DNA of 64,000 bases. It comes from Gemmatimonadota bacterium (GTDB lineage: Bacteria; Gemmatimonadota; Gemmatimonadetes; Gemmatimonadales; Gemmatimonadaceae). The notes beneath the pieces are model-generated. The model was not told where the DNA came from, did not search any database, and saw only the letters and a program-made list of their open reading frames with translations. The stretch lies in the NCBI GenBank assembly GCA_040389905.1, contig JAZJZK010000005.1, forward strand, positions 224,001 to 288,000. The letters are read 5' to 3'. This document shows positions 2,899 through 35,605 of this stretch, in pieces (position 1 is the stretch's first letter; each line of letters begins with the position of its first letter). Both the position numbers and the translations under genes were made by a program.

Positions 2899-3034
2899 GC
2901 GAACCAATGTGCCATACGGATGGTGGTCGCGCTGGTGGTGCGCATGTAAATGATGATCTGGACAGCAATACCCAGCGAGCACATCTTCTGGACCCACCCC
3001 GTCTATGTGAGATCACCCCGTCGTCGGCGCCACC

Positions 3035-6000
3035 ATGCTGATTGATCTCCGAATCGCCCGCCGGGCCCGCGTTGTCGCTGTGGTTTCCGCCGGCGTCGTT
3101 GCTGCATCGGCACTGCTTCCATCGCGCGGCTCGGCCCAGGGTGCGGTCGCGGTGAATGTATCGGATAGCGCGCAGATCTCGGTTGTCCGTAACAAGACGC
3201 TGCGAATCCCGATCGTCCTTGTGCCGACGGGCGGGATAGACATCGCGTCATTCCAGGGTGACATCACCTTTGGCACTGCGCGTCTACGGTTCGATTCCCT
3301 GACCACAGGACCCTTTGGCGTGCTCACGCCGAATACGTCGAACGCCGCCTCGGGCGCGTTGGTGCTCAACGCGACGCGCGCGAGCGGCCAGCCCGCCCGT
3401 GACACGATTGCGAATCTGTATTTCACCGCGGACAACGTGCTCACTGGCGCGTTGTCGTTCGCGCAGCTTGGCGGATCCCGCGTGAGCGCGAGGCCGACCG
3501 CGGCGACGAATGGCGCGGCAGCGAACATTCTGGCGAGTGTCTTCCCGCGACAACTCGATGTCTGTGTGGTTACCGGCGTCTGGGGCGATGTAAACGATGA
3601 TGGTGGAGTCAATGTCATCGATGCCCAGCAGATTGCTCGCTATTCCGTCGGCCTTTCGGTGTTGAATGATTCCGCGGTGATACAGCGCGGTGACGTGACG
3701 GCCAGCAACAGTGTCGATATCATCGATGCGCAGCAGATCGCCCGCTACTCGGTGGGCCTGTCCGCGGCGGCGCGTATCAATACGCCTGCATTTCTCCCCG
3801 CCGCTGTCGCGAGCATGACCGCGTCGCCCGGAGGCACGCAGAATGTGGCCGTCGGGGGAACGCTTCAGCTCACCGCCGATCCGACGAACGCTACTGGCGC
3901 GTCTGTCTCGGGATGTGCGCTCGTGTCCTGGTCCACGTCGGATGCGGGGAAGGCGACGGTGTCTGCGAGCGGTCTTGTAACGGGCGTGGGAAATGGAAGT
4001 GCCGTCATCACGGCGACCAGCGGAGCGAAGACGGCGACCGTCACCGTGAACGTAGGGCCGGTCAATGGGGGAACGGTGAGCGCGATCGAGTTCGTGAATG
4101 GCGCCAGTCAGTATGGCTATACGAATGCCACCGTTCCCGTTGAAATGCGCGCAGTGAATGCCACCGGTGGAACCGTGCCTGGTGCAACGATCACCCTCAG
4201 TCTCACGAGTGGACCCGGTACGCTGATCGGTCCCAGCGGAACAACCGCGACGGTGAACGTGGTCAGCGACGCCAATGGGCTCGCGACAGCGACGTTCTCG
4301 ACAACCACCGCCGGAGCGTCCGTCCTCAATGTCTCTGCGGCCGGCATCACCCCAGTGACGGCGTCGGTCACGGCGATCACCCGCTTCATCGGCCAGCACA
4401 TCTGCATGGGGAACTTCTGGTCGATTCGCTGCTGGGGCAACAATTCCCTCGGCCAGCTCGGGGACGGGACCACGAGCAATAGCCTTGTCCCCGTGAACGT
4501 GAATCTCTCGGGCATTGCGCTCGCACTTCCGCAGGCCAGTGTGACAGTCAGCCCGCAAGGGATCGGCGACCACACCTGCCTCCTCGACGACGCCGGCAAA
4601 GCGTATTGCTGGGGATCGAATACGGCTGGCCAACTGGGCGATGGCACGCAGGTGAACAGGAACAATCCGACAGCCGTGAACACCGCGCTTCGCTTCACCG
4701 CCATCGCGACTGGTAGCGAGCACACGTGTGCATTGACGAGTGGCGGCGAGATGTACTGTTGGGGTTCCAACTTCGTCGGACAGATCGGTGACGGGACCCG
4801 AGCGAATATCCGCCCTGCCCCGACGCGGGTAAGCGCGGCCGCCGGTGTCACGTTCGTGTCGATTGCGCTCGGAAGCCAGCACAGCTGCGCGATTGGCCAG
4901 AACGTCGTGACGTATTGCTGGGGCTCGAACGCGAGTGGCCAACTCGGTGACGGGACGTTGGTCGATCGCGCTGCGCCTACTGTCGTCACGGGTTCATTGG
5001 CGTTGACTACGGTGAGCGCTGGAGACACGCACACCTGCGGCTTGACGGCCGCAGGCGCGGCCTTCTGCTGGGGAGCGCGCGCCAATGGTGCGCTGGGCGA
5101 CGGAGGCAGCACCTCGCTCTCGCAGCCGACACCGGTTGCCGTCGCCAACAACCATGTGTTCCAGTCGATTCATGCGGGCTGGCTGTACACCTGCGGCGCG
5201 AAGGCCAACGGAGAAGTCTGGTGTTGGGGTGCGAACTTCTTCGGTCGCTTCGGCGATGGGACGACCACGGCGACTTACACCGTACCCACCTTTATTCCGT
5301 TCAACGGCCACGCCATTCGCGCGAGTGGTTGGAACAACACGCTGTCCGCGATTACAACCTGCGGCCTCGCGGCAGGCACGGAGCAGGTGTTGTGCTGGGG
5401 CCGGAATTCGCAGGGATTCGTCGGCGACGGAACCACCACCGATCGACTGCTTCCCACGGTCGTTGCGCAGGCTGGCGCAGCGGTCGGAGCGTTTGGAGCG
5501 CTGCGACCCGTCCTCCCCCTTGTGCCGCCGAGTGCCACGAAGGGATCCGCGGTTGCGGACAATCCGACGATTCTCCTGCGTGACCGGCTTGGAAACCCGA
5601 TCGCTGGAGCGACGATAGAGTTCTTCGTCACATCGGGCGGCGGCACCATCGCGAATGCCACAACGACGACGGATGGGTCCGGGCAGGCATCTGGTGGAAC
5701 ATGGACACTCGGGCCAAATGCGGGCATCAATCGGCTCACGGCGCGCGTCGCGATAACAGGGCCGAGCGGAGCGTCGGGCTATACGAGCTACGTCTTCGTG
5801 GCGTTCGGGACGAACGTGGCAGCGAACATCTCGATTTTTGCGGGCAACAACCAGGTGCAGCGGCAGAGCCTGACGTATCCTGGCGCGCTGACGGTGCTGG
5901 TTACGGATGCCGCTTCGGTGCCGATTCCGAATGTGCAGATCACCTTCGCCGTCGCATCCGGTGGAGGCTTCGTGAGCAATTCCGCCGGGGCCAGTTCCTC

Positions 6001-9000
6001 GTCTGCAACGTTGCTTACTGACGCCAATGGGTTGGCGCGGACGCTTGCGAGCGCACCCGGTGTGGCGCAGGCGCAGACGATCACGGCGACCGGAGCGGGA
6101 CTGTCGGCCGTCACCTTCAACCTGAGATCGGCGCCTCTCTTCAACAACGGCGTGCACTGTGAATTGACGTCCGCGGGGGCTGCCTACTGCTGGGGATCGA
6201 ACGATCACGGACAAGTCGGCGATGGTACAACGACGACGCCGCGAGTCTTGCCGACCGCCGTGACTGGCGGTGTGGCATTTACCTCGCTGGCCGATGGTGT
6301 CGGCGACCACATGTGCGGACTGACGGTGGCGGGTGTGGCGTGGTGTTGGGGATCGAATGCCTTCGGCCAGCTCGGTGACAACACGACGACAGACCGGCCG
6401 GCTCCGACCCAGGTCGGTGGTGGCCTCACCTTCACGAAACTGGTCATCAGCTTCACGAGCACCTGCGGCCGCACCTCGGCGGGTGCGCTGTACTGTTGGG
6501 GCGGGGCTGGCAACGGGATCTACGGAGACGGCGCGATCGGGATCGTTCGAATGTTGCCCACGGCCGCCACGGTCGGTGGCCTCGTGTTCAGCGATCTGGC
6601 GATGTACGGATCGGTGTCCGGGTCACACCTCTGCGGAATCGCCACTGGGGGCGCCGCGTACTGCTGGGGCTTGAACGACGCCGGCCAACTCGGGGACGGC
6701 TCCTTCACCAACCGCACTGCGCCAGCGGCTGTCGCCGGCGGACTCGCGTTCACGAAAATCTCGGCGGGAGACCGCCTTACGTGTGGACTCGTGAGCACAG
6801 GCCAGGTGCACTGCTGGGGTCTGGGCATTTCGGGCCAGATGGGGAACGGAACGACCTCGTCGTCCGCGATTCCGGTTACTGGCCCCACGAACTACAACTT
6901 CGTCGCATTCTCGACCTCGGGCGCCACATCGTGTGGCATCAACAACGTCGGTGCCGCGTATTGCTGGGGTGCCTTCGCGAGCGGGCAGGGTGGTGACGGC
7001 ACCACGGTGAACAAGAGCAGTCCGACGCGCGTGGAGGGAAGCATCGCGTTTGGTGCACTCCGCTTACGTGGCGCCACCTCGTGTGGCCGCGCCGCTGGCG
7101 GATCGGCGCACGTGTACTGCTGGGGTAACAACGTCAACGGCCAGGTTGGCGACAACAGCGTCGCGAATCGCACGACGCCCACGGCCACCACCTGGCCCGA
7201 GGGCGTGGCTGGTGCGGCGGTGTCGGTGGTGGTGAGTGCTGATAATCCGGCCGGTTATCCGGGATCGGCCGCATGGCCGGCACCCTCCGTTCTCGTGCGT
7301 GACTACGTGGGGAATCCAGTGAGTGGCGTGAGCGTCACCTTCACGGTGAAATCGGGTGGTGGAAGCGTGACCGGGTCTACAGCCGTCACCGACGCCAATG
7401 GAATCGCCACGGTCGGCAGTTGGATACTCGGTGGCGCCGCTTCGCAGACGCTTTCTGCCACCGCGGCCGGCCTGTCGGCCGCAATCTTCAGCGCAAACCC
7501 CATTGCGTTCTCCGAAACGACGATCGCATCGCTGTATCGCACCATCTGGGGCGCCACGGCGGGCTGCAACAACTGCATTAACACACAGGCGCACGCGATG
7601 GCGCTGGAGAACTACTCCGAGCTTTCGAATTTCTCGATGAAAGTGCGCTCGGTCATTCCACGCACGGCGATCGGGAACGATGCCATCGACTCTTCCGCCA
7701 CGGCGAACTATTCCACGTTCCGCGCCCTCGCCGACGTCGCGCGAGCGGCGGCGTACAGCATTCAGACGGTCAACAGCATTGCCGGCGCTGGTGGCGGCAC
7801 CAATACCGCGTTCGGCTCGAAGGCACAGGATGCGCGTGGCCGTGCCTTTGCGTTTTTCAACGCGGGATGGGCGCTCGGTAGTCTGGCCCTCGCGTTTGAC
7901 TCGTCGGCGATTGTTACGCCAGCCTCGCCGTCGGGCGTCAATCCGCCGCTCTCCGGGTATCGGGATGTCAGTGACGCCGCCATTCGAATGCTCGACTCCG
8001 CAATTGCATGGGCCACGAGTTCCGACATTACGAATGGCGCGAATGGATTCCCGCTTCCAAGTTCGTGGATCAATGGCAATCCCCTCTCCCAGGCGCAGTT
8101 CGTAGCACTGGTGCGCTCACACCGCGCTCGAATTCGCGCGGGTGTTTCACGTTCACCAGCAGAGCGAGCTGCGGTAAACTGGGGCGCAGTGGTCGCCGAC
8201 GCGCAGAACGGGATTGCGTCCGACTTCCAGCTTAGCCTGTCCGTGAGCGCGGGGTGGTCTGGTACGCTGGTCTTCGATACCCAGCAGATGTATTCGTCTG
8301 CGCAATGGCACCAGCTCAGCATGTTGATGTTCGGCATGGCCGATACGACCGGCGCGTACGCCAGCTACCTGGCGTCGCCACTCAGCACCCGCGACGGCAT
8401 GTTCCTGGTGCGGACGCCCGACCTGCGCTTCCCGCAGGGCGCATCGCGAGCCGCACAGCAGGCCGACACGCCGACGCCGCTGCCAGCAGGGCGCTACATC
8501 CGCAATCGCTCTGCGGGGGAGGACATCTTCAACAGCGCGAGCTACAGTAACTCGTTCTACGACTTCCGCAGGTGGCAGCCGATCTCCGGATCCGGCAACG
8601 GACAGTGGACGCAGATGTCCAAAGTCGAGAACGACATGCTCGCCGCCGAGGGGATGATCCGTACGGGCAACTATCCCGGCGCTGCCGTCTTGATCAATGC
8701 ATCGCGCTCGGCGCATGGGTTACCGGTGATCACGGCGTTCAATAACAGCTCACCGGTCCCCGGTGGCAACGCATGCGTTCCGAAGATCCCGCTCCCGCCC
8801 TCGTACAACACCGCCGGATGCGGCAACATGTTCGAGGCGCTCAAGTGGGAGAAGCGTATGGAGACGCTGTATTCGTGCTCTTTCATGTGCTGGTTCACGG
8901 ACAGCCGCGGCTGGGGTGATCTACCTGAGGGCACTCCCGTTCACTGGCCGGTACCGTATCAGGAATTGGACGCCCGCGGCAAGCCGCGCTATCAAATGGC

Positions 9001-9034
9001 TGGTTCGACGAACAAAGGGGCCTACGGTTGGTAG
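3035..9034 (+). CDS. Giant secreted protein A (1999 aa): signal peptide, cohesin-like domain, dockerin, Ig-like domains, two RCC1-repeat propellers, C-terminal RagB/SusD-like domain
   Basis: Signal peptide ending GSA|QG; duplicated GDVNDDGGVNVIDAQQIARYSVGL / GDVTASNSVDIIDAQQIARYSVGL; WSTSDAGKATVSASGLVTGV (Big_2-like); many CWGxNxxGQLGDGT repeats; C-terminal ALKWEKRMET...DSRGWGDLPEGTPVHWPVPYQE. Confidence 0.85.
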   Translation: MLIDLRIARRARVVAVVSAGVVAASALLPSRGSAQGAVAVNVSDSAQISVVRNKTLRIPIVLVPTGGIDIASFQGDITFGTARLRFDSLTTGPFGVLTPNTSNAASGALVLNATRASGQPARDTIANLYFTADNVLTGALSFAQLGGSRVSARPTAATNGAAANILASVFPRQLDVCVVTGVWGDVNDDGGVNVIDAQQIARYSVGLSVLNDSAVIQRGDVTASNSVDIIDAQQIARYSVGLSAAARINTPAFLPAAVASMTASPGGTQNVAVGGTLQLTADPTNATGASVSGCALVSWSTSDAGKATVSASGLVTGVGNGSAVITATSGAKTATVTVNVGPVNGGTVSAIEFVNGASQYGYTNATVPVEMRAVNATGGTVPGATITLSLTSGPGTLIGPSGTTATVNVVSDANGLATATFSTTTAGASVLNVSAAGITPVTASVTAITRFIGQHICMGNFWSIRCWGNNSLGQLGDGTTSNSLVPVNVNLSGIALALPQASVTVSPQGIGDHTCLLDDAGKAYCWGSNTAGQLGDGTQVNRNNPTAVNTALRFTAIATGSEHTCALTSGGEMYCWGSNFVGQIGDGTRANIRPAPTRVSAAAGVTFVSIALGSQHSCAIGQNVVTYCWGSNASGQLGDGTLVDRAAPTVVTGSLALTTVSAGDTHTCGLTAAGAAFCWGARANGALGDGGSTSLSQPTPVAVANNHVFQSIHAGWLYTCGAKANGEVWCWGANFFGRFGDGTTTATYTVPTFIPFNGHAIRASGWNNTLSAITTCGLAAGTEQVLCWGRNSQGFVGDGTTTDRLLPTVVAQAGAAVGAFGALRPVLPLVPPSATKGSAVADNPTILLRDRLGNPIAGATIEFFVTSGGGTIANATTTTDGSGQASGGTWTLGPNAGINRLTARVAITGPSGASGYTSYVFVAFGTNVAANISIFAGNNQVQRQSLTYPGALTVLVTDAASVPIPNVQITFAVASGGGFVSNSAGASSSSATLLTDANGLARTLASAPGVAQAQTITATGAGLSAVTFNLRSAPLFNNGVHCELTSAGAAYCWGSNDHGQVGDGTTTTPRVLPTAVTGGVAFTSLADGVGDHMCGLTVAGVAWCWGSNAFGQLGDNTTTDRPAPTQVGGGLTFTKLVISFTSTCGRTSAGALYCWGGAGNGIYGDGAIGIVRMLPTAATVGGLVFSDLAMYGSVSGSHLCGIATGGAAYCWGLNDAGQLGDGSFTNRTAPAAVAGGLAFTKISAGDRLTCGLVSTGQVHCWGLGISGQMGNGTTSSSAIPVTGPTNYNFVAFSTSGATSCGINNVGAAYCWGAFASGQGGDGTTVNKSSPTRVEGSIAFGALRLRGATSCGRAAGGSAHVYCWGNNVNGQVGDNSVANRTTPTATTWPEGVAGAAVSVVVSADNPAGYPGSAAWPAPSVLVRDYVGNPVSGVSVTFTVKSGGGSVTGSTAVTDANGIATVGSWILGGAASQTLSATAAGLSAAIFSANPIAFSETTIASLYRTIWGATAGCNNCINTQAHAMALENYSELSNFSMKVRSVIPRTAIGNDAIDSSATANYSTFRALADVARAAAYSIQTVNSIAGAGGGTNTAFGSKAQDARGRAFAFFNAGWALGSLALAFDSSAIVTPASPSGVNPPLSGYRDVSDAAIRMLDSAIAWATSSDITNGANGFPLPSSWINGNPLSQAQFVALVRSHRARIRAGVSRSPAERAAVNWGAVVADAQNGIASDFQLSLSVSAGWSGTLVFDTQQMYSSAQWHQLSMLMFGMADTTGAYASYLASPLSTRDGMFLVRTPDLRFPQGASRAAQQADTPTPLPAGRYIRNRSAGEDIFNSASYSNSFYDFRRWQPISGSGNGQWTQMSKVENDMLAAEGMIRTGNYPGAAVLINASRSAHGLPVITAFNNSSPVPGGNACVPKIPLPPSYNTAGCGNMFEALKWEKRMETLYSCSFMCWFTDSRGWGDLPEGTPVHWPVPYQELDARGKPRYQMAGSTNKGAYGW

Positions 9035-9124
9035 ACTGATGATCTGGACAGCAAAACCCTTTCGTCCCATCTTCTCGGCCCACCTTCCGTACGTGAGATC
9101 ATCATCGTTATCGGCACCCACAGG

Positions 9125-12100
9125 CTGATCGATCTCCGCATCGCACGCCGCGCATGTGTTGCCGTTGTCGCCTCCGCCGTCGCCGTCACGACGTCGGCCG
9201 TTCTGCCATCCAGCGCATCCGCACAAGGTTCGCTTGCGCTGAATGTTTCGGACAGCGTGCAGCTGTCCGTCGTTCGCGGCCGAACGCTTCGCATTCCGAT
9301 TCTCGTTGTCCCAGCGGGGGGCCTGAGTATTGCCGCGCTCCAGAGCGATGTCATCTTCGGCACGACGCGGCTGCACTTCGACTCACTGACGACCGGCCCG
9401 TTCGGTGTGCTGACGCCGAACACTTCGAACGCCGCATCGGGCGCCCTCGTTCTCAACGCTTCGCGTGGGAGCGGCCAGACGGCGCGCGACACGATCGCAA
9501 ACGTGTTCTTCACCGCTGCCAACGACCGCACGAACGCGCTGTCCTTTGAGAACCTCGGCGGTTCACGAATCAGCGCTGCGCCAACGTCCGCACAGAACGG
9601 AACCGCTGCGAGCATCCTTGCCAGCGTGGTTCCGCGGCAGCTCGATGTCTGCGTCGTGAGCGGAGCATGGGGCGACATGAACGATGATGGCGTCGTCAAT
9701 ATCATCGATGCGCAACAGATTGCCCGGTATTCCGTTGGCCTGTCGGTGGCGAACAATACCGCCGTGATCCAGCGCGGCGATGTAACGGCGGACGGCAACG
9801 TCAATATCATCGATGCACAGCAGATCGCGCGCTTTTCCGTTTCGCTGTCGGCGGTCGCGAGAATCGACACACCGGTGTTCATTCCCGCGGCGGTGGCGAG
9901 CATGACTGCGTCGCCTGGTGGCACGCAGACCGTCGCCGTAGGCGGAATGCAGCAGCTCACCGCAGATCCCAAGAATGCCGATGGCATGTCCGTCGCTGGA
10001 TGTGCACTGGTCGCGTGGTCCACCTCCAATCCCGGCACGGCAACGGTCTCCGCCAGTGGACTGGTGACGGGCATCGCCAACGGAAGCACCGTCATCACCG
10101 CCACGAGCGGTGGGCAGACAGCGAATGTCACCGTCAACGTCGCCCCCACAGGCGGTGGGAGCGTGACTGCAATCGAGTTCGTCGATGACGTAGACCAGTA
10201 CAGCTACACGACTGAAAGTGTCCCCTTTGAGGTGCGAGCCGTGAACGCCGTGGGAGGGACTGTGCCCGGCGCGACCATCACGGTCTCCGTGACGAGTGGA
10301 ACGGCAATACTGTATGGTCCGAGCGGAGTCGTGTCGACGCTGGACCTCGTCACCGACGCGAGTGGTTACGCCACCGCGCCCGTGTACGCCGGCTCTGCCG
10401 GAACGTCCGTCCTCAGCGTCTCTGCGCCGGGCGTCGCTCCCAGAACGGCGTCGCTCACCGCGATCACGCGCTTCCTCGGTCAACACGTCTGCATGGGGAA
10501 CTACTGGTCGATTCGCTGCTGGGGAAACAATTCGCTCGGACAACTCGGCAACGGGACGACGAGCACCAGTATCGACCCCGTGAACGTGAATCTCTCGGGC
10601 ATTGCGCTCGCGCTTCCGCAAACAAAGGTGAGCGTCAGTCAGCAGGGGATTGGCGATCACACGTGCCTGCTCGACGACGCGGGCCAGGCATATTGCTGGG
10701 GTTCGAACACGGCGGGCCAGCTTGGCGACGGCACCCGCGTGAACAAGAGCACTCCGACCGCAGTCAGCACCGCGCTGCGATTCACGACGATTGCGACCGG
10801 TAGCGAACACACCTGCGCGTTGACGAGCGGCGGGGAGATGTATTGCTGGGGTTTCAACTTCTATGGTCAGCTGGGGGACGGCACCAAAACGCGAATTCGC
10901 GTTCTGCCCACGCGCGTCAGCGCACCGGCGGGCGTGACGTTCGCTTCGATGACCGTAGGGACGGCGCACTCGTGCGCGATCGCGCAGACTGGTGCGCCGT
11001 ACTGCTGGGGCTCGAATGCGAGTGGCCAACTCGGCGATGGCACGCAGATCAACCGCGCGCTTCCGGTCGCGGTCACGGGGTCACTGTCACTCAGCTCGAT
11101 GACTGGCGGTGACTCCCACACCTGCGGATTGACCGCGGCTGGCGCGGCATGGTGTTGGGGCAACCGCGCGGCGGGCACGATGGGCGACGGGGGCGGGTCG
11201 GCGTTGTTCCAGCCAGTGCCCACTGCCGTCGCCAACGGTCATGTCTTCCAGTCCATTCACGCTGGTTATCTCTATACCTGTGGAGCGAAGGTCACAGGTT
11301 TGGTTTGGTGCTGGGGGGGCGGGAGCGGCTACGGTCGGTTTGGCGACGGGACGATCATAGCGAACTATGTCGTGCCGACGCTGATTGCATTCACCGGCAA
11401 CGCGATTCACGTGGGAGGATTCAATAGCGCGATTTCCGCCCTGGCCACCTGTGGGTTGACGGAGGTCACGCGGCAGGTGATGTGCTGGGGCAAGAACGAC
11501 CAGGGCTATCTCGGCAACGGGACGACGGATCATAGCACCCTCCCGACCGTCGTGCCGCAGGCCGGTGTCACGGCGGGAACGCCGGGCGCAGTGCAACCCG
11601 TTGTCCCTGTCGTCCCTGTTACGCCTCCGAGCGTCACCGCGGGTACCGCTGTACCACAGTCTCCAGCAATTCTGCTACGCGATCGACTGGGCAATCCGAT
11701 CGTGGGCGCAACGGTCGAGTTCCTGGTGACGGCGGGTGGCGGGTCCGTGGCGAACGCCTCGGCGGTGACGGACGGCGTCGGGCTGGCGAGCAGCGGCACT
11801 TGGACGCTTGGACCGACGCCAGGGTTCAATACCCTCACTGCGCGCGTCTCAGCATTGGCGCCAGGAGGGGCGACAGGTTACGCGCGCCACGTGTTCGCTG
11901 CATTCGGCACGAGCGCGCCCGCGACCATCACGATCGTTGCGGGAAACAATCAGGTGGCGCGCGCCACCCAGACCTATCCAGGCGCGCTGACCGTTCTCGT
12001 GACGGACGCAGCATCCGCGCCGATTCCGAACGTGCCCATCACGTTCGCCATCGGTTCAGTGAGCGGATTGAGCGGGTTGATTGTGTCGAGTCCGGTCCTG

Positions 12101-15100
12101 ACCGATGCTGGCGGTCGCGCGAGCACGTTTGCAAGCTCGGCTTCCTCTGCGCAGTCGTATACGATTACAGCGACGGGCGTCGGCCTCGGCACCGCTACTT
12201 TCACCATGCGTGCGGCGCCGCTCTTCAACAACGGTGTGAACTGCGAATTGACATCCAGTGGTGCGGCGTACTGCTGGGGCTCGAACGATCACGGGCAGGT
12301 CGGTGACGGCACGACGACCACGCCACGGACTTCGCCAACGGCCGTAAGCGGAGGCGTCACCTTCGCCTCGCTCGCAGATGGGTCGGGAGACCACACGTGT
12401 GGTCTTACAATCGCGGGCGCCGCCTGGTGCTGGGGATCGAATGCCTTCGGTCAGCTCGGGGACAACACCATCGTCGATCGGTCGGCTCCAATACTCGTCA
12501 GCGGCGGACTCTCGTTCACGAAGCTCGTCGTCAGCTTCACCAGCACCTGTGGCCGAACGTCCGCCGGCGCGCTCTATTGCTGGGGCAGCGCAGGGCACGG
12601 TATCTACGGCGACGGCGAGCTCGGCACGATTCGCATGACGCCCACGGCAGTAACAGCGGTCGGTCTCGTGTTCAGCGATTTAGCGATGTATGCATCCGCC
12701 TCCGGATCGCACCTCTGCGGATTGGCCGCCGCAGGCGCAGCGTACTGTTGGGGCCTGAACGATGCCGGCCAGCTTGGCGACGGCTCGTTCACGAACCGTC
12801 TCACGCCGACGGCCGTCTCTGGTGGTCTCGCGTTCACGAAAATCGTAGCGGGAGACCGCGTGACGTGCGGGCTCGCAACCTCCGGTCAGGCCTATTGTTG
12901 GGGATTCGGAGCCTCCGGGCAATTGGGCAACAACACAACATCCGTCTCCGCGACGCCTGTTACAGGGGCCACGAACTACAACTTCGTGGCGCTCTCGAGT
13001 TCCGGTGCGTCGGTCTGTGGCATCACGAGTGCTGGGGCGATGTACTGTTGGGGAGCGAACACCAACGGTCAGGTTGGCGACGGGACGCTGGTAAACCGAT
13101 TGCAGCCAACGCGCGTGGAAGGAGGTGTGGCTTTCGGCGCCGTTCGCGCGCGAGTCGCCACGACGTGTGGTCGCGCCGCGGGAGGTGTTGCGCCGGTGTA
13201 CTGCTGGGGCAACAACGTGAATGGTCAGGTCGGCGACTTTTCGGTGGTCTCTCGCGCGACTCCAGTCGTGGTCAGCTGGCCGGAAGGCAGCGCAGGAGTT
13301 CCCGTCTCGCTGGCGATACTCGCCGGGAATCAGTCGGGCTTCGCCGGCGGCGCGGCATCACCAGCACCCTCCGTCGTCGTGCGGGACTATGCGGGCAATC
13401 CGGTGAGCGGCGTGAGCGTGACCTTCACCGTGAGGTCTGGCGGCGGCAGCGTAACGGAGGCGACGGCGATTACCGGGGCGACTGGCTTGGCCACGGTCGG
13501 CAGCTGGGTCTTCGGTGCCGCTGGGCCGCAGACGCTTGCCGCAACAGCGCCGGGCTTGCCGACGGCAATTTTCAGTGCAAGCGCCGCAGCCTTCACCGAG
13601 TCGTCGATTTCATCACTGTACCGGACGGTTTGGGGAGCAACGGCAGGATGCACCGACTGCGTGAATGTCCAGGCGCACGCGCTCGCCGTCGAGAACTACT
13701 CGGCGCTCGCGAACTCCGCGATGAACATCCGCTCAGCCATTCCGCGCGTCGCCATTGGCAATGATCCATCCGAGCCCACAGCCGCGGCGAACTTCTCCAC
13801 CTTCTCCTCGCTCACTGCCGCCGCGCGGACGGCCGCCAATAGTATCCAGGCGTTGAACAGCCTTGCGGGTGCCGGAGGGGGCGCGTCTAACGCATTGGGC
13901 TCAAAGGCGCAGGATGCGCGCGCTCGTGCGTTCGCGTTCTTCAGTTCCGGGCTGGCGCTCGGCAATCTTGCGATTGCGTATGATTCCGCTGCGATCATTA
14001 CGTCGACGACGTCCTCGGCGACCAACCCGCCGTTGTCGGGATACTTCGCCGTCAGCGAGGCGGCGCTTCGCATGCTTGACTCAGCACTCGCGTGGGCAAC
14101 AAGCCCCGACATCACGAGCGGCGCGAATGGATTCCCACTGCCGAGCACGTGGATCAATGGGAATCCGTTGTCGCAAACGCAGTTCGTGGCACTCGTGCGC
14201 GCGCACAAGGCGCGGTTCCGCGCGGGTGTCGCTCGTTCGCCGGCGGAGCGCGCCGCGGTGAACTGGACGCAGGTGATCGCCGACGCGCAGAGCGGCATCA
14301 CGTCGAATTTCGCAGTGACCCTGAACTCGAGCGCTGGTTGGTCACACAGTTCGACGTTCGACGTCAACTTGGCGTACACGTCGGCAGCGTGGCATCAGTT
14401 GAGCATGTTGATGTTAGGCATGGCTGATACGAGCGGTGCGTATGCGAGCTTCATCGCGGCACCGTTGGCGACACGGGATGGGATGTTCCTCGTTCGTACG
14501 CCAGACTTGCGCTTCCCGCAAGGTGCGACGCGCGCCGAACAACAGGCCGACACACCGCCGCTTGTCCCGCTACCCGCGCAACGCTACATCCGGAATCGCG
14601 CGGAGGGCTCGGATGACTTCTCCGGGTTCGCATACGGCCGCTCCTTCTACGATTTCCGTCGATGGCAACTAGTCATTCTGCTGGGCGGAAGCGGACAGTG
14701 GATTCAGATGTCCAAAGTCGAAAACGACATGCTGGCGGCGGAAGGGATGATCCGAACGGGCAACTATGCCAGTGCTGCGTCCTTGATCAACGCGTCGCGC
14801 GCGGCGCATGGGTTGCCGGTGATTACGACGTTCAATAACACCTCACCAGTTCCAGGCGGCAACGCCTGCGTTCCGAAGATTCCCGTCGGACCGGCGTACA
14901 ACACCGTCGCCTGCGGAAACATGTTCGAAGCGCTCAAGTGGGAGAAGCGCATGGAGACGATGTACTCGTGTTCCTTCATGTGCTGGTTCACCGACAGCCG
15001 CGGCTGGGGCGATCTACCTGAGGGCACTCCCGTTCACTGGCCGGTACCGTATCAGGAATTGGACGCCCGCGGCAAGCCGCGTTATCAAATGGCTGGCTCT

Positions 15101-15127
15101 GCGAATAAGGGCGCCTACGGCTGGTAG
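9125..15127 (+). CDS. Giant secreted protein B, tandem paralogue of 3035..9034 (start uncertain)
   Basis: Colinear with protein A over its full length. The codon matching A's ATG is AGG (9122-9124). The homologous signal peptide is still in frame from CTG at 9125; the first GTG is at 9257. Confidence 0.8.
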   Translation: MIDLRIARRACVAVVASAVAVTTSAVLPSSASAQGSLALNVSDSVQLSVVRGRTLRIPILVVPAGGLSIAALQSDVIFGTTRLHFDSLTTGPFGVLTPNTSNAASGALVLNASRGSGQTARDTIANVFFTAANDRTNALSFENLGGSRISAAPTSAQNGTAASILASVVPRQLDVCVVSGAWGDMNDDGVVNIIDAQQIARYSVGLSVANNTAVIQRGDVTADGNVNIIDAQQIARFSVSLSAVARIDTPVFIPAAVASMTASPGGTQTVAVGGMQQLTADPKNADGMSVAGCALVAWSTSNPGTATVSASGLVTGIANGSTVITATSGGQTANVTVNVAPTGGGSVTAIEFVDDVDQYSYTTESVPFEVRAVNAVGGTVPGATITVSVTSGTAILYGPSGVVSTLDLVTDASGYATAPVYAGSAGTSVLSVSAPGVAPRTASLTAITRFLGQHVCMGNYWSIRCWGNNSLGQLGNGTTSTSIDPVNVNLSGIALALPQTKVSVSQQGIGDHTCLLDDAGQAYCWGSNTAGQLGDGTRVNKSTPTAVSTALRFTTIATGSEHTCALTSGGEMYCWGFNFYGQLGDGTKTRIRVLPTRVSAPAGVTFASMTVGTAHSCAIAQTGAPYCWGSNASGQLGDGTQINRALPVAVTGSLSLSSMTGGDSHTCGLTAAGAAWCWGNRAAGTMGDGGGSALFQPVPTAVANGHVFQSIHAGYLYTCGAKVTGLVWCWGGGSGYGRFGDGTIIANYVVPTLIAFTGNAIHVGGFNSAISALATCGLTEVTRQVMCWGKNDQGYLGNGTTDHSTLPTVVPQAGVTAGTPGAVQPVVPVVPVTPPSVTAGTAVPQSPAILLRDRLGNPIVGATVEFLVTAGGGSVANASAVTDGVGLASSGTWTLGPTPGFNTLTARVSALAPGGATGYARHVFAAFGTSAPATITIVAGNNQVARATQTYPGALTVLVTDAASAPIPNVPITFAIGSVSGLSGLIVSSPVLTDAGGRASTFASSASSAQSYTITATGVGLGTATFTMRAAPLFNNGVNCELTSSGAAYCWGSNDHGQVGDGTTTTPRTSPTAVSGGVTFASLADGSGDHTCGLTIAGAAWCWGSNAFGQLGDNTIVDRSAPILVSGGLSFTKLVVSFTSTCGRTSAGALYCWGSAGHGIYGDGELGTIRMTPTAVTAVGLVFSDLAMYASASGSHLCGLAAAGAAYCWGLNDAGQLGDGSFTNRLTPTAVSGGLAFTKIVAGDRVTCGLATSGQAYCWGFGASGQLGNNTTSVSATPVTGATNYNFVALSSSGASVCGITSAGAMYCWGANTNGQVGDGTLVNRLQPTRVEGGVAFGAVRARVATTCGRAAGGVAPVYCWGNNVNGQVGDFSVVSRATPVVVSWPEGSAGVPVSLAILAGNQSGFAGGAASPAPSVVVRDYAGNPVSGVSVTFTVRSGGGSVTEATAITGATGLATVGSWVFGAAGPQTLAATAPGLPTAIFSASAAAFTESSISSLYRTVWGATAGCTDCVNVQAHALAVENYSALANSAMNIRSAIPRVAIGNDPSEPTAAANFSTFSSLTAAARTAANSIQALNSLAGAGGGASNALGSKAQDARARAFAFFSSGLALGNLAIAYDSAAIITSTTSSATNPPLSGYFAVSEAALRMLDSALAWATSPDITSGANGFPLPSTWINGNPLSQTQFVALVRAHKARFRAGVARSPAERAAVNWTQVIADAQSGITSNFAVTLNSSAGWSHSSTFDVNLAYTSAAWHQLSMLMLGMADTSGAYASFIAAPLATRDGMFLVRTPDLRFPQGATRAEQQADTPPLVPLPAQRYIRNRAEGSDDFSGFAYGRSFYDFRRWQLVILLGGSGQWIQMSKVENDMLAAEGMIRTGNYASAASLINASRAAHGLPVITTFNNTSPVPGGNACVPKIPVGPAYNTVACGNMFEALKWEKRMETMYSCSFMCWFTDSRGWGDLPEGTPVHWPVPYQELDARGKPRYQMAGSANKGAYGW

Positions 15128-16220: not shown

Positions 16221-18620
16221 TCATGTCCGTAGGACCTCCGACGGCTCGATGGTGAGGAACTGCGCGAGTGGCGCGCTCACACCGACCGTCGCGCTCATCG
16301 CGACCGAGACAACGCAGAGCACAATGGACAACCCGAGTGGCGGCGAGGGTGTATTCCTAAAGACACCCCCCAACCTCATCAACACAAGCGCGAATGGAAG
16401 TCCTGCAGCGATGCCGACTCCGACAGCAATGGCGATCTTTCGCATTTCATGAAGTGCAACCTGCACATGAGATCCTCCGACGGCCAGCGAGATGGCAATT
16501 TCGCGTCGTCGATTGGAAATCACACTCAAGCTGGCGCTTGCGATACTCGTCAGGCATGCAACGAGCGAGACCATCGCGCACAACAGGAAGAAGCGCACGC
16601 CGGTTCGCAACGGCCGTAATCGCTCCTCGAAGTCACGTCGAACGGAACGGACAGACTGAACCTGCTCCGGCCCGGCCACCGTCCTGACGAGCTCTTGCAC
16701 ATCCCTCAGAACCTCTGCTGTGGGTCCAAGGGCTCGGAATACGATCCCGTTCGACGCGCGGCGCCCTGTGGAGAGCGGTTCATAGAGCATGATCGGGTTC
16801 TTCAGTCCGGATCCCGACAAGTCCGCATCGTCTACTGTGCCGATGATGGAGATGCATGACCCGTCGGGAACGCCGACTCTCACACACCCGCGCGCCAAGG
16901 CTCGTGGAAAAAATCTGCGCCTTGCGGACTCACTCAGGAGTGCCACATCAGCTCCCGCGCGCCACTGCGCGAAGCCACCGTCGCCAGTCCAGTGAACTGG
17001 AAGCTGCATCACACGAAAGAATGCCGAGTCGACTTGGTGGACTTCTGCTGGCGCGGATTCGGCCGTGGCGGCGGCAATGTAGAGCACTGCCATGCTAAAT
17101 GACCGCGCCGGAAGCGCAGAGACCTCGCTGACACCATCGACTCCCGGACGGCGCTTCAATTCCCTCGAGATATCAGCGAGGAGGCTGCCGCGCGGACTCA
17201 CAAGGTTGGACACCGGCGCAACGCTGTAAACGTGTGCGATGTCGTATCCCCATTCTATTCGACTGGCTGCCCGTAACCGCAGGCTGGAAAACGCCGTCGT
17301 CAGCACGAGCACCGTGACAAGCGAGACTTGGGTGGCGAGAAGGCCATAGGAGGTCCGTGACAGCGTGACCGAACCTAGTCGAGCGGCCTCGAGGACTTGG
17401 CGCAGCTGAACCCGTGATCCGAAGTGGAGGGCGGGCAGTATTGCACTGAGTAGGGCGGCGAGTATCACGACTGCCGTGAAGTAGTTCGTGGTGATCGCGC
17501 GTCCACCATCCCACAGACCAAAGGTGTCAATCGCGATTCTACCAAGGAAGAGTCGTTCAAGGCCTAGCCCCACGAGCGAGCCCATGGCAACGGCAACCAG
17601 CCCGGCGACGCTGGACGCCATCACAACTTGTGCTGGGGTTGCTCCGTGCACTTCGTGCAACAACCATTTGTGAGAGGACGCGAGTCGTTGCAACGCGAAG
17701 AGTTGCGTGGTGTTCGAAATGAGAAGGAGTGCCAGACAGATGGACGTCAGCACGGACATCAAGAGCAGACTCGCTTTCAGGTCGCGCTCAATCCCGAGTG
17801 ACATGTTGAGGGGACGAAATCGCAGGGACTTGATATCGAAATCGACCTCGTTCGACGCAAGGCGACTCTGGAGGACGTTGATGGTCCTTTGCGCGTCGCC
17901 GCCACCGGGATAGCGAGCGACGGTGCGAAGCCACTTTGCGTTGCCGGTTAGCCACACTGCGGGAATGCCGATGGCGTCCGCTGACTCGAGTGGAATGAAC
18001 AGGTCGGCAGGTTGCGCATTAATGCCTCGGAAGTCCCTGACCACGGCCTGCACAGTCCATGGTATTCCATTGACACGGACAATCGCGCCGAGCGCCGACT
18101 GGGGCGAGGGAAAGGTCCTTCGGACAAAGTGCTCCGAGACAATTATTGCACGGCGCTCGTTCCGCCACCGCATGGGACCCGCGAGGCTGGTACTTCCAAG
18201 GAGGCTCAAGAAACCCTCCGATACGACGGCAAGTTCCTCCTCCTCTGGACCCGCCGTGCCCACCGAGACGATGACGGACAGGGAGCCATAGGCTTCGACA
18301 CCAGTCAGGACGTCCACGGCCGCATGGCGCATGGCGTCGACTTCCACGCGGGAGAACGAAAGCGACGAGACTGGAAACGCTTCCCGCCCGTGAATTGCCG
18401 AAATTCGTTTCAGACTGCTCGCGTCCTTGACGCCAGGAATGTTCGGGTCGAACACGAGCATCGCCACGTCAGTCACCGCAGTGAACACTGCGATGCACAG
18501 CGCAGCGAAGAGGGCGACGTACGCGCCGAACAGCACGCCGCTATATCGGTCGGCGACCAGCGTTGGCCAATAGCCCAAAGCCCTACGAAACGTCATTCCG
18601 GCATCTCTTGCCAGCGACAC
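16221..18620 (-). CDS. ABC permease, duplicated MacB/FtsX (ADOP-like) family, divergent
   Basis: 799 aa with two MacB periplasmic halves (AIIVSEHF, ALLSESARRRFF, IIGTVDD), RRREIAISLAVGG and C-terminal IEPSEVLR. Confidence 0.8.
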   Translation of the reverse strand: MSLARDAGMTFRRALGYWPTLVADRYSGVLFGAYVALFAALCIAVFTAVTDVAMLVFDPNIPGVKDASSLKRISAIHGREAFPVSSLSFSRVEVDAMRHAAVDVLTGVEAYGSLSVIVSVGTAGPEEEELAVVSEGFLSLLGSTSLAGPMRWRNERRAIIVSEHFVRRTFPSPQSALGAIVRVNGIPWTVQAVVRDFRGINAQPADLFIPLESADAIGIPAVWLTGNAKWLRTVARYPGGGDAQRTINVLQSRLASNEVDFDIKSLRFRPLNMSLGIERDLKASLLLMSVLTSICLALLLISNTTQLFALQRLASSHKWLLHEVHGATPAQVVMASSVAGLVAVAMGSLVGLGLERLFLGRIAIDTFGLWDGGRAITTNYFTAVVILAALLSAILPALHFGSRVQLRQVLEAARLGSVTLSRTSYGLLATQVSLVTVLVLTTAFSSLRLRAASRIEWGYDIAHVYSVAPVSNLVSPRGSLLADISRELKRRPGVDGVSEVSALPARSFSMAVLYIAAATAESAPAEVHQVDSAFFRVMQLPVHWTGDGGFAQWRAGADVALLSESARRRFFPRALARGCVRVGVPDGSCISIIGTVDDADLSGSGLKNPIMLYEPLSTGRRASNGIVFRALGPTAEVLRDVQELVRTVAGPEQVQSVRSVRRDFEERLRPLRTGVRFFLLCAMVSLVACLTSIASASLSVISNRRREIAISLAVGGSHVQVALHEMRKIAIAVGVGIAAGLPFALVLMRLGGVFRNTPSPPLGLSIVLCVVSVAMSATVGVSAPLAQFLTIEPSEVLRT

Positions 18621-18644
18621 GAGGGCGAGCCAGCGGTCGCAGCT

Positions 18645-19658
18645 CTATCGTGTCGACGGATGAAGCTCGGAGATATAGCGCCCGTGAAGCACGAAGAGCC
18701 GCTTGCCCTTCGCGGCAATCCAGCGGGACACCCATGGCAATTCGTACGAGCCCACGTACTTACCGGAATGAATCGAATAGCGGTCGATGACACGCTTCGC
18801 CAGCGTGCGGTCCTTGCCGGCGTAGAGGACCACAACCTCGGTATCGCGCAATGCGATGGAGACCGCCGTCTGAACCGCGGCACCAAGGATCTCGTCTGTC
18901 TTCCTGGCCTGGGTGCGCCGAATCACATCGGGAAAGTTCGTCGATTCGATGAATCGTCCGCGAGTCAGAGCACCCGCGCTGGTGTCGAGTACGACAAAGC
19001 CGTCGCCAAAGGCAAAGCCAAAGACCCAATGCTCGAGCCTGTCGTCGGTCGCCGTCCATCCCTGTCTCATAAGAGGGCGCAGCGCCGAAAAATCGGCGGA
19101 GGGAAATGCGTTACGGGACAGCCGTTTTCCCTGATTGTCAAAAATCACGAGAGGCGCCGCGGAGTCGGTGGTCACCGCCGCAAAGCGATTGCCGGTGAGC
19201 GGAACAAACGCATCAATGTCATCGACCCCGAACGGTGAGATACTGCCACCGGTTCGGCCTCTGGGGTCAACGGTGATGAGGCGATTCGCGCCCACGAGCG
19301 CAACAAGTGTGTCGTGCCCCGTAGTCGTCAGACCAAGGAGCGGGCTCTCTTCTGCGGCGCCAATGTCCGTTCCCCACAGCCGCCGACCATTCTTGTCGAG
19401 GGAGGTAATCCGGGTCCTTCCTTCGAGAAACGCGAAACCCTGATCGGTAGCAACGAGATGTCTCATGGTGCGATAGGTGGTGTCCGATCCAGGAACCGCA
19501 ATCGAGTCGAACGTCGTGCCGCTGAATACTCGATGAGCGGAATCGCGCGTCGAAGTCTCGTGAGGGGCCCGTACCACGCTGACGCGTGCTGACTCGCGTT
19601 CGCACGAGACAACCGCCAGTCCACCTACAAAGAACAGCCTCAATATTCTAGGAGCCAT
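18645..19658 (-). CDS. Predicted lipoprotein, probable 6-bladed beta-propeller (TolB-like/BF3164-like)
   Basis: Lipobox-like LAVVS|C after MAPRILRLFF; propeller-type repeats (LVIFDNQGKRL, IDRYSIHSGKYVGSYELP). Confidence 0.6.
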   Translation of the reverse strand: MAPRILRLFFVGGLAVVSCERESARVSVVRAPHETSTRDSAHRVFSGTTFDSIAVPGSDTTYRTMRHLVATDQGFAFLEGRTRITSLDKNGRRLWGTDIGAAEESPLLGLTTTGHDTLVALVGANRLITVDPRGRTGGSISPFGVDDIDAFVPLTGNRFAAVTTDSAAPLVIFDNQGKRLSRNAFPSADFSALRPLMRQGWTATDDRLEHWVFGFAFGDGFVVLDTSAGALTRGRFIESTNFPDVIRRTQARKTDEILGAAVQTAVSIALRDTEVVVLYAGKDRTLAKRVIDRYSIHSGKYVGSYELPWVSRWIAAKGKRLFVLHGRYISELHPSTR

Positions 19659-19759
19659 GTGATCGCTTCCTCGGTTTGTCTGGCTAGCTAAGAGCGTACC
19701 GCATCGCATCCAGGCACACTCAACGCGAGGCATGTGGCATCCCAATATGCCTTCCTCCG

Positions 19760-20254
19760 TCACGGACCTTTTCTGGCACTCAGCGTCTCGATAAAGGAAT
19801 CTGCTGGCGTCTCACTTCCCGGGAGTATCGTCCGGAGAACCAGTCGCTCATCAAAGAGCAGCGTGACGGGAAGCGACGCAACGCCGAGGAGCGCGAGTGA
19901 GTGCCCCACCTTGCGCTCGGTCAGGGCTCGCACAGGGAAGTGGAAGCCGTAGGAGGCGATGATCTCGTCGGCCGGCACCTCCTCCCTTTCGCCGATGATA
20001 AGGATGCCTTGTACGTCGGCCCGTCTGCCTCTGCTGACGACGTTCCATCGATCAATAATCTCGAGTGCTCCTGGGCAATCACCGGCGCGAAAAAGAAAGA
20101 TGATATGCGGTCGCGATTCGGCCACGCCGGAAGAAGGCTGGGCGAGAAGGCTGGAAATCGGACGACCCAATCCGATCACCTGTTGGCGGAGGATAATGGC
20201 TTCCGCCAAAATGGCAATGACAGCAACAACGCCTACGGCCGTCGAAAGGCGCAT
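19760..20254 (-). CDS. Membrane-anchored thioredoxin-fold protein with degenerate CxxC (CPGA)
   Basis: N-terminal TM helix; IIFLFRAGDCPGALEIIDRWN; cis-Pro loop LGVASLPVTLLFD. The start could instead be 20311. Confidence 0.6.
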   Translation of the reverse strand: MRLSTAVGVVAVIAILAEAIILRQQVIGLGRPISSLLAQPSSGVAESRPHIIFLFRAGDCPGALEIIDRWNVVSRGRRADVQGILIIGEREEVPADEIIASYGFHFPVRALTERKVGHSLALLGVASLPVTLLFDERLVLRTILPGSETPADSFIETLSARKGP

Positions 20255-20443
20255 TAGGACAGCATCTTTCGCCGCTGAGCGCTGAGCGCCGGATCCGAGT
20301 ATCGACATCAACCACAGAACTGGTTAGCGTGCCCCGCTGGCAACAGGCGTACTCAACTGGTCGCCTTGCAAGCGCGACCGCATCCCGAGCAGGTGGTGCG
20401 TGCGGTCGCGCTTGCGAAGTGAGGGTTCCCCGAGCAGAGGAAG

Positions 20444-20668
20444 CTAGAACATGGTGTAGTAATCCGTAAACGTGACCCACTGATCACAGACGCCATTCGA
20501 CACGTGGCTGCAGTAAGTCGACGTCCTGCACTTCTTGAGGATACCGTCCGCACAGGAGTCCTCGGCCTTAAGGATGCTCCGCGACGAGAACGAAGGCACA
20601 GCCAGAACCGCTCCCGCCACCGTAAGGACTACGAAACTGAACTGCACCAGACGCTTAAGTTGCGTCAT
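20444..20668 (-). CDS. Small secreted 4-Cys peptide 2 (74 aa)
   Basis: MTQLKRLVQFSFVVLTVAGAVLA signal; core SCADGILKKCRTSTYCSHVSNGVCDQWVTFTDYYTMF; GAGG upstream; paralogue of the adjacent ORF. Confidence 0.85.
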   Translation of the reverse strand: MTQLKRLVQFSFVVLTVAGAVLAVPSFSSRSILKAEDSCADGILKKCRTSTYCSHVSNGVCDQWVTFTDYYTMF

Positions 20669-20744
20669 TGCCGACCTCGGGTAGATGATGGTACTCAATG
20701 CCACGGCCGTTCCACACACGTTGTGTGCGTCTCGCTGGCGCGGA

Positions 20745-20966
20745 CTAGAACATCGTGTAATAGAACGTGAGCGTGGTATAACCTTGGCAGACACCGTTGT
20801 ACCACTGAGCGCAGCTGGTCTGTTCACGGCACTTCTTCAGCAAGCCGTCAGCGCACGAGCTGTCAGCACGGAGCTCCTGCTTTTGAGATACAGCTGGCGC
20901 AATCGCGATCGCACTGATTGACGCGGCGAGCGCCAGCGTGATCGAAAGCCCCTGAATTTTAGTCAC
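20745..20966 (-). CDS. Small secreted 4-Cys peptide 1 (73 aa)
   Basis: AGGAGA RBS before the GTG; signal peptide; core SCADGLLKKCREQTSCAQWYNGVCQGYTTLTFYYTMF. Confidence 0.85.
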   Translation of the reverse strand: MTKIQGLSITLALAASISAIAIAPAVSQKQELRADSSCADGLLKKCREQTSCAQWYNGVCQGYTTLTFYYTMF

Positions 20967-21030
20967 TCTCGCTCTCTCCTGTTTAGAGTCAGTAAACGCG
21001 TCTTACCACCGGGCGCCTTTGGTAGCCGCG

Positions 21031-21060
21031 ATTGTAATGCCCCGGATCCACTTCTGTCAA
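21031..21060 (-). promoter_or_regulatory. Near-consensus sigma70 promoter for the peptide cassette
   Basis: The minus strand reads TTGACA-N18-TACAAT, ~65 nt upstream of the peptide 1 start. Confidence 0.65.
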
Positions 21061-21325
21061 GGAACCGTTTCTTCCCCCAAGTAAAATGTTAGAATGAGAT
21101 GACCGATCCTCCGAGAGCCGTCCCGCGTGTAGTTGATGCTCAAGCACTGGCGCCTCCAATCGCTCCCGGGATCCCAAAAACAGTCGCGATGGGCTCGGGC
21201 TCGAGCTCATAGATGGCGCAGGGGAACATTCTCCAATGGACTTGAGTTTCATCACCCTCAGGACTTACAATGGATCAGGAGGCCGCTAGGTCCCAACCTC
21301 ACGTGCCGATCACCGGAGAAGCAGT

Positions 21326-21574: not shown

Positions 21575-21676
21575 TGTCCTGATTAGAAGGTTGCCAACGA
21601 GGACGCCGAGCCATTCTGGTTGGGCAAGGAACGGCTGTGGAAATCCCCCAAAGCGTCACGCGAGTCCGCCTACAAT

Positions 21677-35542: not shown

Positions 35543-35605
35543 TCCATGGCCACGCGCGCCAGAACTGGTCGTTCCAGGGCGGCACTAGCCCGGAGAATTT
35601 CCACT

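Follow-up and report, generated by a model that had tools for sequence, protein, structure and literature searches.

Tandem proteins of a Gemmatimonadota bacterium that join a cohesin-dockerin cassette to RCC1-like propellers and a SusD-like domain: putative end-of-chain binders of a cell-surface assembly

The DNA analysed here (the window) is a stretch of 64,000 nucleotides from a Gemmatimonadota bacterium (contig JAZJZK010000005.1, positions 224,001 to 288,000 of the forward strand). It carries two adjacent genes on the + strand, gene A (3035..9034, 1999 amino acids (aa)) and gene B (9122..15127, about 2000 aa). Both have the domain order signal peptide, cohesin, dockerin, Big_2, Big_1, RCC1, two Big_1, RCC1, Big_1 and SusD-like, and the two proteins are 71% identical over 1960 columns; judged from their sequences, they are tandem paralogues that are predicted to be secreted. 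This is a real, selected and lineage-specific architecture, in an apparently undescribed variant of cohesin-dockerin assembly. We consider it reasonably probable that A and B plug through their dockerins into cohesins carried on predicted lipoprotein stalks, and would so display their propellers and SusD head as end-of-chain binders.

A first-pass annotation of the window had proposed a signal peptide, a dockerin, Big domains and two RCC1 blocks for both proteins, and the domains of this string were recovered with Pfam and the CWG blade motifs. Dockerin_1 (PF00404) scored 26.2 bits in A and 32.3 bits in B against a Pfam cut-off of 22.9 bits; Big_2, Big_1 (four stretches) and RCC1 also exceeded their cut-offs in both proteins, and the 14 CWG motifs of A fall into two blocks of 7. 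In A, the beta domain at the N-terminus and the final 507 aa had no match in Pfam and none in NCBIfam. The cohesin Pfam model PF00963 matched neither A nor B, its cut-off being passed by two paralogues and by all four cohesins of the large carrier proteins described below. A search of PDB sequences with the C-terminus of A was blank, and a profile search returned only E 0.1. Since the sequence searches were blank, these two domains were placed by fold comparison alone.

For the N-terminal part, residues 35-340 of A were modelled with AlphaFold2 from an 89-row alignment (predicted local distance difference test (pLDDT) 94.4, predicted template modelling score (pTM) 0.85). The first 147 residues of this cassette model superpose on the cohesin 6kgc with Z 16.0 and a root-mean-square deviation (rmsd) of 2.0 over 131 residues, and on the Archaeoglobus fulgidus cohesin 2xdh with Z 16.1 and an rmsd of 3.0 over 132 residues. 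The first 14 VIA-align rows are all cohesins or cohesin-containing chains (Z 13.7-16.1), Foldseek gave E 1.4e-9, and the model has the nine-stranded jelly-roll beta-sandwich of cohesins. The cohesin call of the annotation thus holds for the fold but not for the length, which is about 145 aa instead of some 120. The domain occupies 3137..3574 in A, with Thr80, Thr124 and Ala128 and a conserved Cys143 as its last residue (numbering counts from the first mature Gln), and 9224..9661 in B, with Ser80, Gln124 and Ala128; the two copies are 74% identical.

The duplicated GDV motif, read earlier as a dockerin, is one by both profile and fold: residues 147-209 of the model match the dockerin 2ccl_B with Z 9.5 and an rmsd of 1.9 over 62 residues, with helices at 160-170, 178-184 and 195-205. 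In A (3575..3790; PF00404 36.6 bits on the excised domain) the two repeats are symmetric and read V/I-I-D-A-Q-Q-I-A-R; the dockerin of B lies at 9662..9877. Both proteins have Asp at loop positions 1 and 12 of both repeats, and the second loop of A has Ser at position 5, where Asp stands in 85 of 89 sequences. Residues 223-306 of the model match Big_2 domains. The Big_2 domain of A (3791..4060) holds a second conserved Cys (Cys260), predicted to form a disulfide with Cys143, and both cysteines occur in 71 of the 74 sequences that cover both positions. The nearest clusters in the ESM Atlas are Dockerin/Big_2 and Cohesin/Dockerin proteins from other phyla (scores 0.86-0.93), which we treat as leads only.

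The C-terminal domain of A (7511..9031), modelled with AlphaFold2 from 82 rows (pLDDT 94.1), has the SusD/RagB fold. The first 40 VIA-align rows are SusD/RagB-type lids or SusCD entries with Z 16.6-24.2 (best match Z 24.2, rmsd 3.1 over 380 residues), and the row that follows them scores Z 10.6. Sequence comparison agrees, with 2544 relatives among 7997 candidates scored. The closest are lipoproteins of 540-570 aa (best about 553 aa, 62% identity), and one relative, in Gemmatimonas groenlandica, is named RagB/SusD by UniRef. Relative to the stand-alone proteins, the fused domain lacks a median of 44 residues at its start, and 71 of the 79 aligned relatives have a lipobox-like Cys in this missing part. 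The earlier proposal of a SusD that lost its own lipoprotein N-terminus is therefore borne out. The SusD/RagB-like domain of B (13595..15124) is 75% identical to that of A.

The genome (5.08 Mb, 66 contigs, 84.6% complete) was surveyed for related proteins. Thirteen frames open with the same signal-cohesin-dockerin cassette, usually followed by Big_2; A and B are two of them, so that the scan for other dockerin proteins suggested by the annotation yielded 11 more. All 13 dockerins of the genome that pass the Pfam cut-off sit in this cassette. The payloads behind it comprise RCC1 propellers (7 proteins), SusD-like domains (3), GH17 (1), an M8 peptidase (1) and Ig (immunoglobulin-like) or repeat domains. 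The cellulosome-like scaffold with non-enzymatic heads that had been envisaged is thus mostly upheld, except that two of the 13 paralogues bear enzymes. Among 47 relatives scanned, RCC1 was found in 15 and enzymes in 4, with GH10 in 1. A Gln directly follows the predicted signal peptidase I site in all 13 cassette paralogues; the Gln is similar to that of the Q-rule of Bacteroidota, under which the N-terminus becomes pyroglutamate.

Cohesins without a dockerin occur in four further proteins of the genome, six cohesins in all. One gene on contig C41 (C41:779-8866) encodes an Ig-repeat protein of 2695 aa, which has three cohesins and whose signal ends in FSLVRC; a 3915-codon frame on contig C13 (C13:25988-37732) has one cohesin and a signal ending IGITC; two small C41 genes account for the rest. 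The large dockerin-free proteins are predicted lipoproteins and likely anchors for the cassette cargo. In a wider genome collection we found 50 cassette loci, mostly in Gemmatimonadota, and 205 representatives scored E 1e-30 or better. In the related loci a hydrophobic stretch ending in Cys opens 15 of 16 large cohesin-only frames versus 6 of 43 cohesin-dockerin frames, a count made by hand on frames with an intact N-terminus, by a rule that gives false positives, and excluding two frames cut at the 5' end and three genes of the small type that were read in long overlapping frames. Four loci (L022, L036, L037 and L038) share one gene order: anchor, small lipoprotein cohesin, small secreted cohesin, cassette. 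The distribution is patchy: the system was present in 5 of 150 genomes sampled from the phylum and in 3 of 40 sampled from the genus, the latter sample including the unpublished genome G167, which had no match.

Several other arrangements were seen in these loci and in this genome. Two small genes with a single cohesin each, whose products look like a lipoprotein in one case and a secreted protein in the other, form a conserved pair at L009:8939-10078 (on contig C41 of this genome), L022, L030, L036, L037 and L038; the pair has a distinct signature (YQG, R-x-V-N and RFAGF) and keeps Phe80 and Gly124. Six cassette proteins (L013:9860-17086, P0006, P0012, P0020, P0024 and P0029) have a second, dockerin-free cohesin downstream, which could serve as a branch or extension of the assembly. 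Two giant Ig-repeat proteins of this genome, C50:15878-23983 and C50:27004-33948, have lipoprotein-like signals, with no cohesin or dockerin detected in them.

On the cohesin, the surface that receives a dockerin is the 8-3-6-5 sheet; on the dockerin, repeat positions 10 and 11 set the specificity (PMC8063739, in excerpt). Both dockerin repeats read [IV][IVL]DAQQxAR almost throughout the family; therefore a single recognition code is indicated, probably with a dual binding mode. The presumed binding face was compared between 183 cassette cohesins and free cohesins, 33 from large proteins and 20 from small ones, two of 55 free sequences having been dropped. An aromatic residue at position 80 (strand 6) together with Gly124 (end of strand 8) is present in 30/33 large and 18/20 small free cohesins. 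Among the 181 cassette cohesins other than those of A and B, 99 have both residues and 56 have neither. A and B have neither, a state shared by 1/33 large and 0/20 small free cohesins, and they also lack Gly128; they keep Gln40, Thr64 and Asn66. Within this genome, 4 of the 13 cassettes, C22:80185 and C7:83980 among them, have both residues and 9 have neither. In covariation across the 183 sequences the pair 80-124 ranks 2, 66-124 ranks 7 and 40-78 ranks 9. Cassettes with neither residue have Asn66 at a frequency of 0.47 versus 0.96 and Gln/Thr40 at 0.31 versus 0.72, and they have lost Gly128 too. They keep the dockerin code (15.57 versus 15.67 of 16 positions), and their cohesin core and Cys143 are unchanged. 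In our reading, the binding plateau has decayed as one unit in roughly a third of cassettes, with the dockerin remaining in use, which argues both against obligate binding in cis and against a socket role for the cohesins of A and B.

These data bear directly on the annotation's proposal of a head-to-head polymer of A and B (A-A, A-B), in which the cohesin of one chain would hold the dockerin of the next. Each chain does contain both modules with the right folds, the retained Gln40, Thr64 and Asn66 leave part of the face conserved, the ratio of non-synonymous to synonymous substitution (dN/dS) between A and B is only 0.09 in the cohesin segment, and the four paralogues with a full face could extend chains. 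Both cohesins of the proposed polymer, however, are without the aromatic-80 and Gly124 pair that most free cohesins keep, and Gln or Thr at position 124 would be expected to crowd the plateau. Head-to-head polymerisation of A and B is accordingly doubtful, and we hold this alternative to be unlikely. Asked of the single chain, as for an adaptor whose own cohesin serves as socket, the sequence leans against this role in A and B and towards it in 4 of the 13 paralogues.

A closed unit, in which the cohesin binds its own dockerin as a stable or autoinhibited N-terminal cap with no standing anchor assembly, would account for the position of all 13 genome dockerins directly behind a cohesin, and the pTM of the three-domain model is suggestive of a fixed arrangement. 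On the other side, the dockerin begins about 6 residues past the last cohesin strand and is flanked by the Cys pair, which should bar it from the 8-3-6-5 face of its neighbour; its code is unchanged where the adjoining face has decayed; and the free cohesins with an intact face would be left partnerless. Covariation gives this reading little, since the best pair between the cohesin and the dockerin or Big_2 ranks 14 and the pairs are scattered, although at 183 sequences this is a weak test. We regard the closed unit as distinctly unlikely.

In the favoured reading, docking in trans onto predicted lipoprotein stalks, A, and B if it is translated, would be exported by Sec and then cross the outer membrane, possibly by a type II system, and would form disulfides on folding. 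Ca-dependent docking would follow onto stalk cohesins or onto the paralogues with an intact face, and the symmetry of the two dockerin repeats would allow it in either orientation. The cassette's own cohesin would act as a rigid pedestal, stapled by the disulfide to Big_2, and would be a working socket only in the four of 13 paralogues that keep the face. A and B would thus cap the chain and present their binding heads, and the SusD head would bind an external ligand (glycan or peptide) for capture or adhesion and not as a transporter lid. BLIP-II is a secreted bacterial RCC1-like propeller that binds proteins. A broader picture, in which some Gemmatimonadota build on the outer membrane a "capture forest" of cohesin-bearing lipoprotein stalks, with a universal dockerin code, extenders with intact sockets, caps with decayed sockets (A and B) and SusCD lids captured time and again as free ligand-binding heads far out from the cell, is offered tentatively and may well prove wrong.

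Several points weigh against the docking model. No cohesin-only gene lies beside A and B, and their partner is therefore assumed to be encoded elsewhere; one of five related genomes checked yielded only a cassette cohesin. B may not be translated from its signal peptide, as discussed below. Positions 80 and 124 were placed on the interface by profile alignment to the CipC cohesin 2vn5 (E 1.7e-5), strand alternation and type I numbering, and it is on these that we infer their side chains to face the dockerin. Given the retention of Gln40, Thr64 and Asn66 and the low dN/dS of the cohesin segment, the face in A and B is perhaps changed rather than dead. The conservation of the dockerin is inflated because the relatives were gathered with a dockerin motif or the cassette profile, a selection bias from which only the 13-gene census within this genome is free, and in the face and frame counts kin are counted as if independent.

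The detached SusD domain raises the question of a transporter. In Bacteroides Bt1762 the part of the chain that follows the lipid anchor acts as its pivot on SusC (PMC7782687, in excerpt). The SusD heads of A and B are without a lipobox, without this N-terminal pivot segment and without an adjacent susC: as the annotation had stated, there is no TonB-dependent receptor among the 34 main open reading frames (ORFs) of the window scanned. The genome scan for orphan susC genes that it suggested found none. Each of the 12 SusC-like genes of the 85%-complete assembly is followed on the same strand by a frame of 447-703 codons, 10 of these with a visible lipobox-like Cys, and so no orphan susC is needed; on contig C12 a stand-alone SusD homologue lies directly behind a TIGR04056 SusC. 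The domain might still serve a SusC transporter as a tethered or second lid that delivers ligand directly. Most family-conserved SusD columns are indeed kept (114 of 127 in A, 120 of 127 in B), and the closest stand-alone subfamily of A (62% identity) has no copy in this assembly, where the nearest is 38% identical. With the anchor and pivot gone, and with every SusC-like gene already provided with a downstream partner, we find such service highly improbable.

Beyond A and B, SusD-like payloads are carried by the paralogue C57:9071 and, elsewhere, by four cassette proteins (L043:9830, P0119, P0126 and P0143). A tree of 32 rows, built with 20 of the 79 stand-alone relatives, places A and B together in a clade with starred support that sits within the stand-alone lipoproteins, and C57:9071 pairs with the other SusD of this genome (71% identity). 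The label "fused" needs four changes on this tree, where long branches lead to several fused rows. It is likely that SusD was captured onto the cassette on at least two separate occasions in this lineage. In the architecture search, the full A/B order was found in this genome only. Among 7992 candidates, a search of longer proteins for the A/B architecture gave four matches, namely A, B and two lipoprotein-like proteins without the cassette, which is a weak negative. Among 20 relatives, 12 had SusD matches, all in frames of at most 667 aa. Confinement of the full order with RCC1 and SusD to this genome is thus only weakly indicated. The two lipoprotein-like proteins, P0273 and P0274, are ~1000 aa long; each ends in a stalk-borne SusD-like domain and is without the cohesin-dockerin cassette. 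They represent, from their predicted layout, a second way to display a detached SusD.

The same assembly could also be periplasmic, or its cargo could be released to work away from the cell. The outer-membrane step is deduced only; many diderm lipoproteins face the periplasm; and the type II secretion cluster of the window (43341-53541, - strand), with homologues of GspE, the secretin (D), M, L-like, K, pseudopilins, F and G, lies 28 kb away and is only a possible export route for the cassette proteins. Against a periplasmic site, anchors of 2695 and ~3900 aa built of Ig repeats, together with cargo of 2000 aa, would be long for the periplasm, and SusD, GH17, M8 peptidase and Ig-stalk families are usually extracellular. 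We judge this variant quite improbable. The type IX secretion tail model PF18962 had no match, but its controls were silent too.

The remaining features of the two genes, all on the + strand, are as follows. The predicted Sec signal peptide of A (3035..3136; signal peptidase I cleavage between GSA and Q, judged by eye) is preceded by a leader (2945..3034) of ~90 nucleotides whose side-by-side alignment with the stretch before B is visibly homologous, and thus the duplication took in the leader. Behind the Big_2 domain of A follow a Big_1-like domain (4061..4381; Pfam E 4e-6, alone below the cut-off), a seven-bladed RCC1-like propeller (4382..5470), two Big_1-like domains (5471..6130), a second seven-bladed propeller (6131..7195) and a fourth Big_1 domain (7196..7510; 36.2 bits, above the cut-off), the propellers being defined by Pfam and CWG motifs. 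The corresponding region of B (9878..13594; Pfam and CWG motifs) has Big_2, Big_1, RCC1 (10469-11560), two Big_1, RCC1 (12215-13279) and Big_1.

The start of B is less clear. The ORF listed by the program for B runs from GTG 9257 to 15127 (1956 aa). Its signal peptide is nevertheless intact and in frame upstream, with AGG (9122-9124) where A has ATG, and CTG at 9125 is the sole start candidate from the NTG set of NCBI table 11. The other 12 paralogues all have an ATG, GTG or TTG located 15-45 codons upstream of the predicted cleavage site; B alone has none. A public contig of depth 18, which may stem from the same sample, has the same letters around the AGG. B may start at CTG or may have lost its start codon recently. 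The intergenic region (9035..9121) is open and in frame from the TAG of A to the signal peptide of B, so that A and B share a frame, with one TAG and 29 open codons between them (9032-9127). Read-through of this TAG was considered and rejected as unlikely: the stand-alone SusD relatives also end with this YGW/YGF, and in-frame stops are present upstream of A. All 11 segments compared between A and B, among them the signal peptide, have a dN/dS of 0.09-0.31; purifying selection therefore acted on both genes during most of the time since they diverged. Scans for promoters and terminators gave about as many matches as expected by chance (3 versus 1.8 and 11 versus 7.4). An apparent 105-base "joint" proved to be an artefact: at the edge of the stretch, one dockerin repeat, the second, had been matched to the first.

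Elsewhere in the window, a MacB/FtsX-type gene and then unannotated ORFs of lower GC content (57-60%) occupy 16221-22000. A 727-aa DUF5916 protein (22064-24247, + strand), possibly an outer-membrane protein, lies upstream of a LytTR two-component pair. A row of DUF499 ATPase, DUF7680, DUF1156 methylase and SNF2 helicase-PLD genes at 32095-42185 (- strand) resembles the "restriction-like" anti-phage system.

If correct, the docking model would mean that a bacterium with two membranes has put cohesin-dockerin assembly to new use as a general means of display, with lipoprotein anchors, extenders and caps. It would also mean that SusD lids work away from SusC, which bears on whether SusD alone can bind ligand usefully. 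The split between intact and decayed faces in one genome provides a small binding matrix, 13 dockerins of one code by 19 cohesins, and the disulfide-stapled cassette may be of interest for surface display and for the design of synthetic cellulosomes.

In full-text literature searches, which covered neither subscription papers nor supplements, we found no description of Gemmatimonadota cohesin-dockerin proteins, of SusD fusions or of the A/B architecture, in line with the annotation's own statement. Several known systems are nonetheless close. Compared with the cellulosome structures 3ul4, 4dh2, 6kgc and 2vn5 (cohesin Z 14-16), the cassette shares its cohesin fold and symmetric two-loop dockerin with OlpA/OlpC of C. 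thermocellum, CohA2 of C. acetobutylicum and CipC of C. cellulolyticum. As in cellulosome anchoring scaffoldins, a cell-anchored cohesin (here predicted) would take dockerin cargo, and C41:779-8866, with three cohesins and a lipobox-like signal, resembles a multi-cohesin scaffoldin whose anchoring is likewise a prediction. Cellulosomes, however, use a surface-layer homology (SLH) or sortase anchor where we predict a lipoprotein on a long Ig stalk; the cargo here is mostly non-catalytic, with 1 GH17 among the 13 dockerin proteins of the genome; and one recognition code is common to several genomes. The SusD domains of A and B have the full fold of the SusD/RagB lids of SusCD transporters (BT_2365 3mcx, Bt1762), but unlike these lids they are fused after about 1490 residues of cassette, Ig and propeller domains.

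Another close arrangement is that of the adaptor scaffoldins of Ruminococcus flavefaciens, which have one cohesin and one dockerin (ScaC, ScaF and 5-11 similar proteins per strain; PMC4081043, in excerpt). As there, each chain here joins one cohesin to one dockerin behind it, and a genome has several such chains alongside multi-cohesin scaffolds. The Ruminococcus adaptors, which belong to a cellulolytic monoderm system, consist of little else than this pair, whereas here the pair is an N-terminal cassette in a diderm, with an added Big_2 domain and Cys pair, a payload of 450-2900 residues and, in A and B, a cohesin face that looks decayed. Outside cellulosomes, candidate but unverified cohesin/dockerin modules have been noted in the Gram-negative Saccharophagus degradans (PMC2386152, in excerpt), and non-cellulosomal cohesin/dockerin proteins are treated as a recognised broad class (PMC13487519, in excerpt). 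The cohesins of Archaeoglobus fulgidus (2xdh, which ties for the best structural match) and of Clostridium perfringens glycoside hydrolases are likewise from cohesin-dockerin modules outside cellulose breakdown. To our knowledge, no expanded family with a constant cassette, swapped heads and lipoprotein anchors exists among these non-cellulosomal proteins. Type II and III dockerins occur in X-dockerin dyads, where the dockerin is immediately preceded by a beta-sandwich that supports it structurally, and the decayed cohesin of A and B may have a similar role. Unlike the X module, the putative support here is itself a cohesin homologue, and one that still looks functional in about half of the family.

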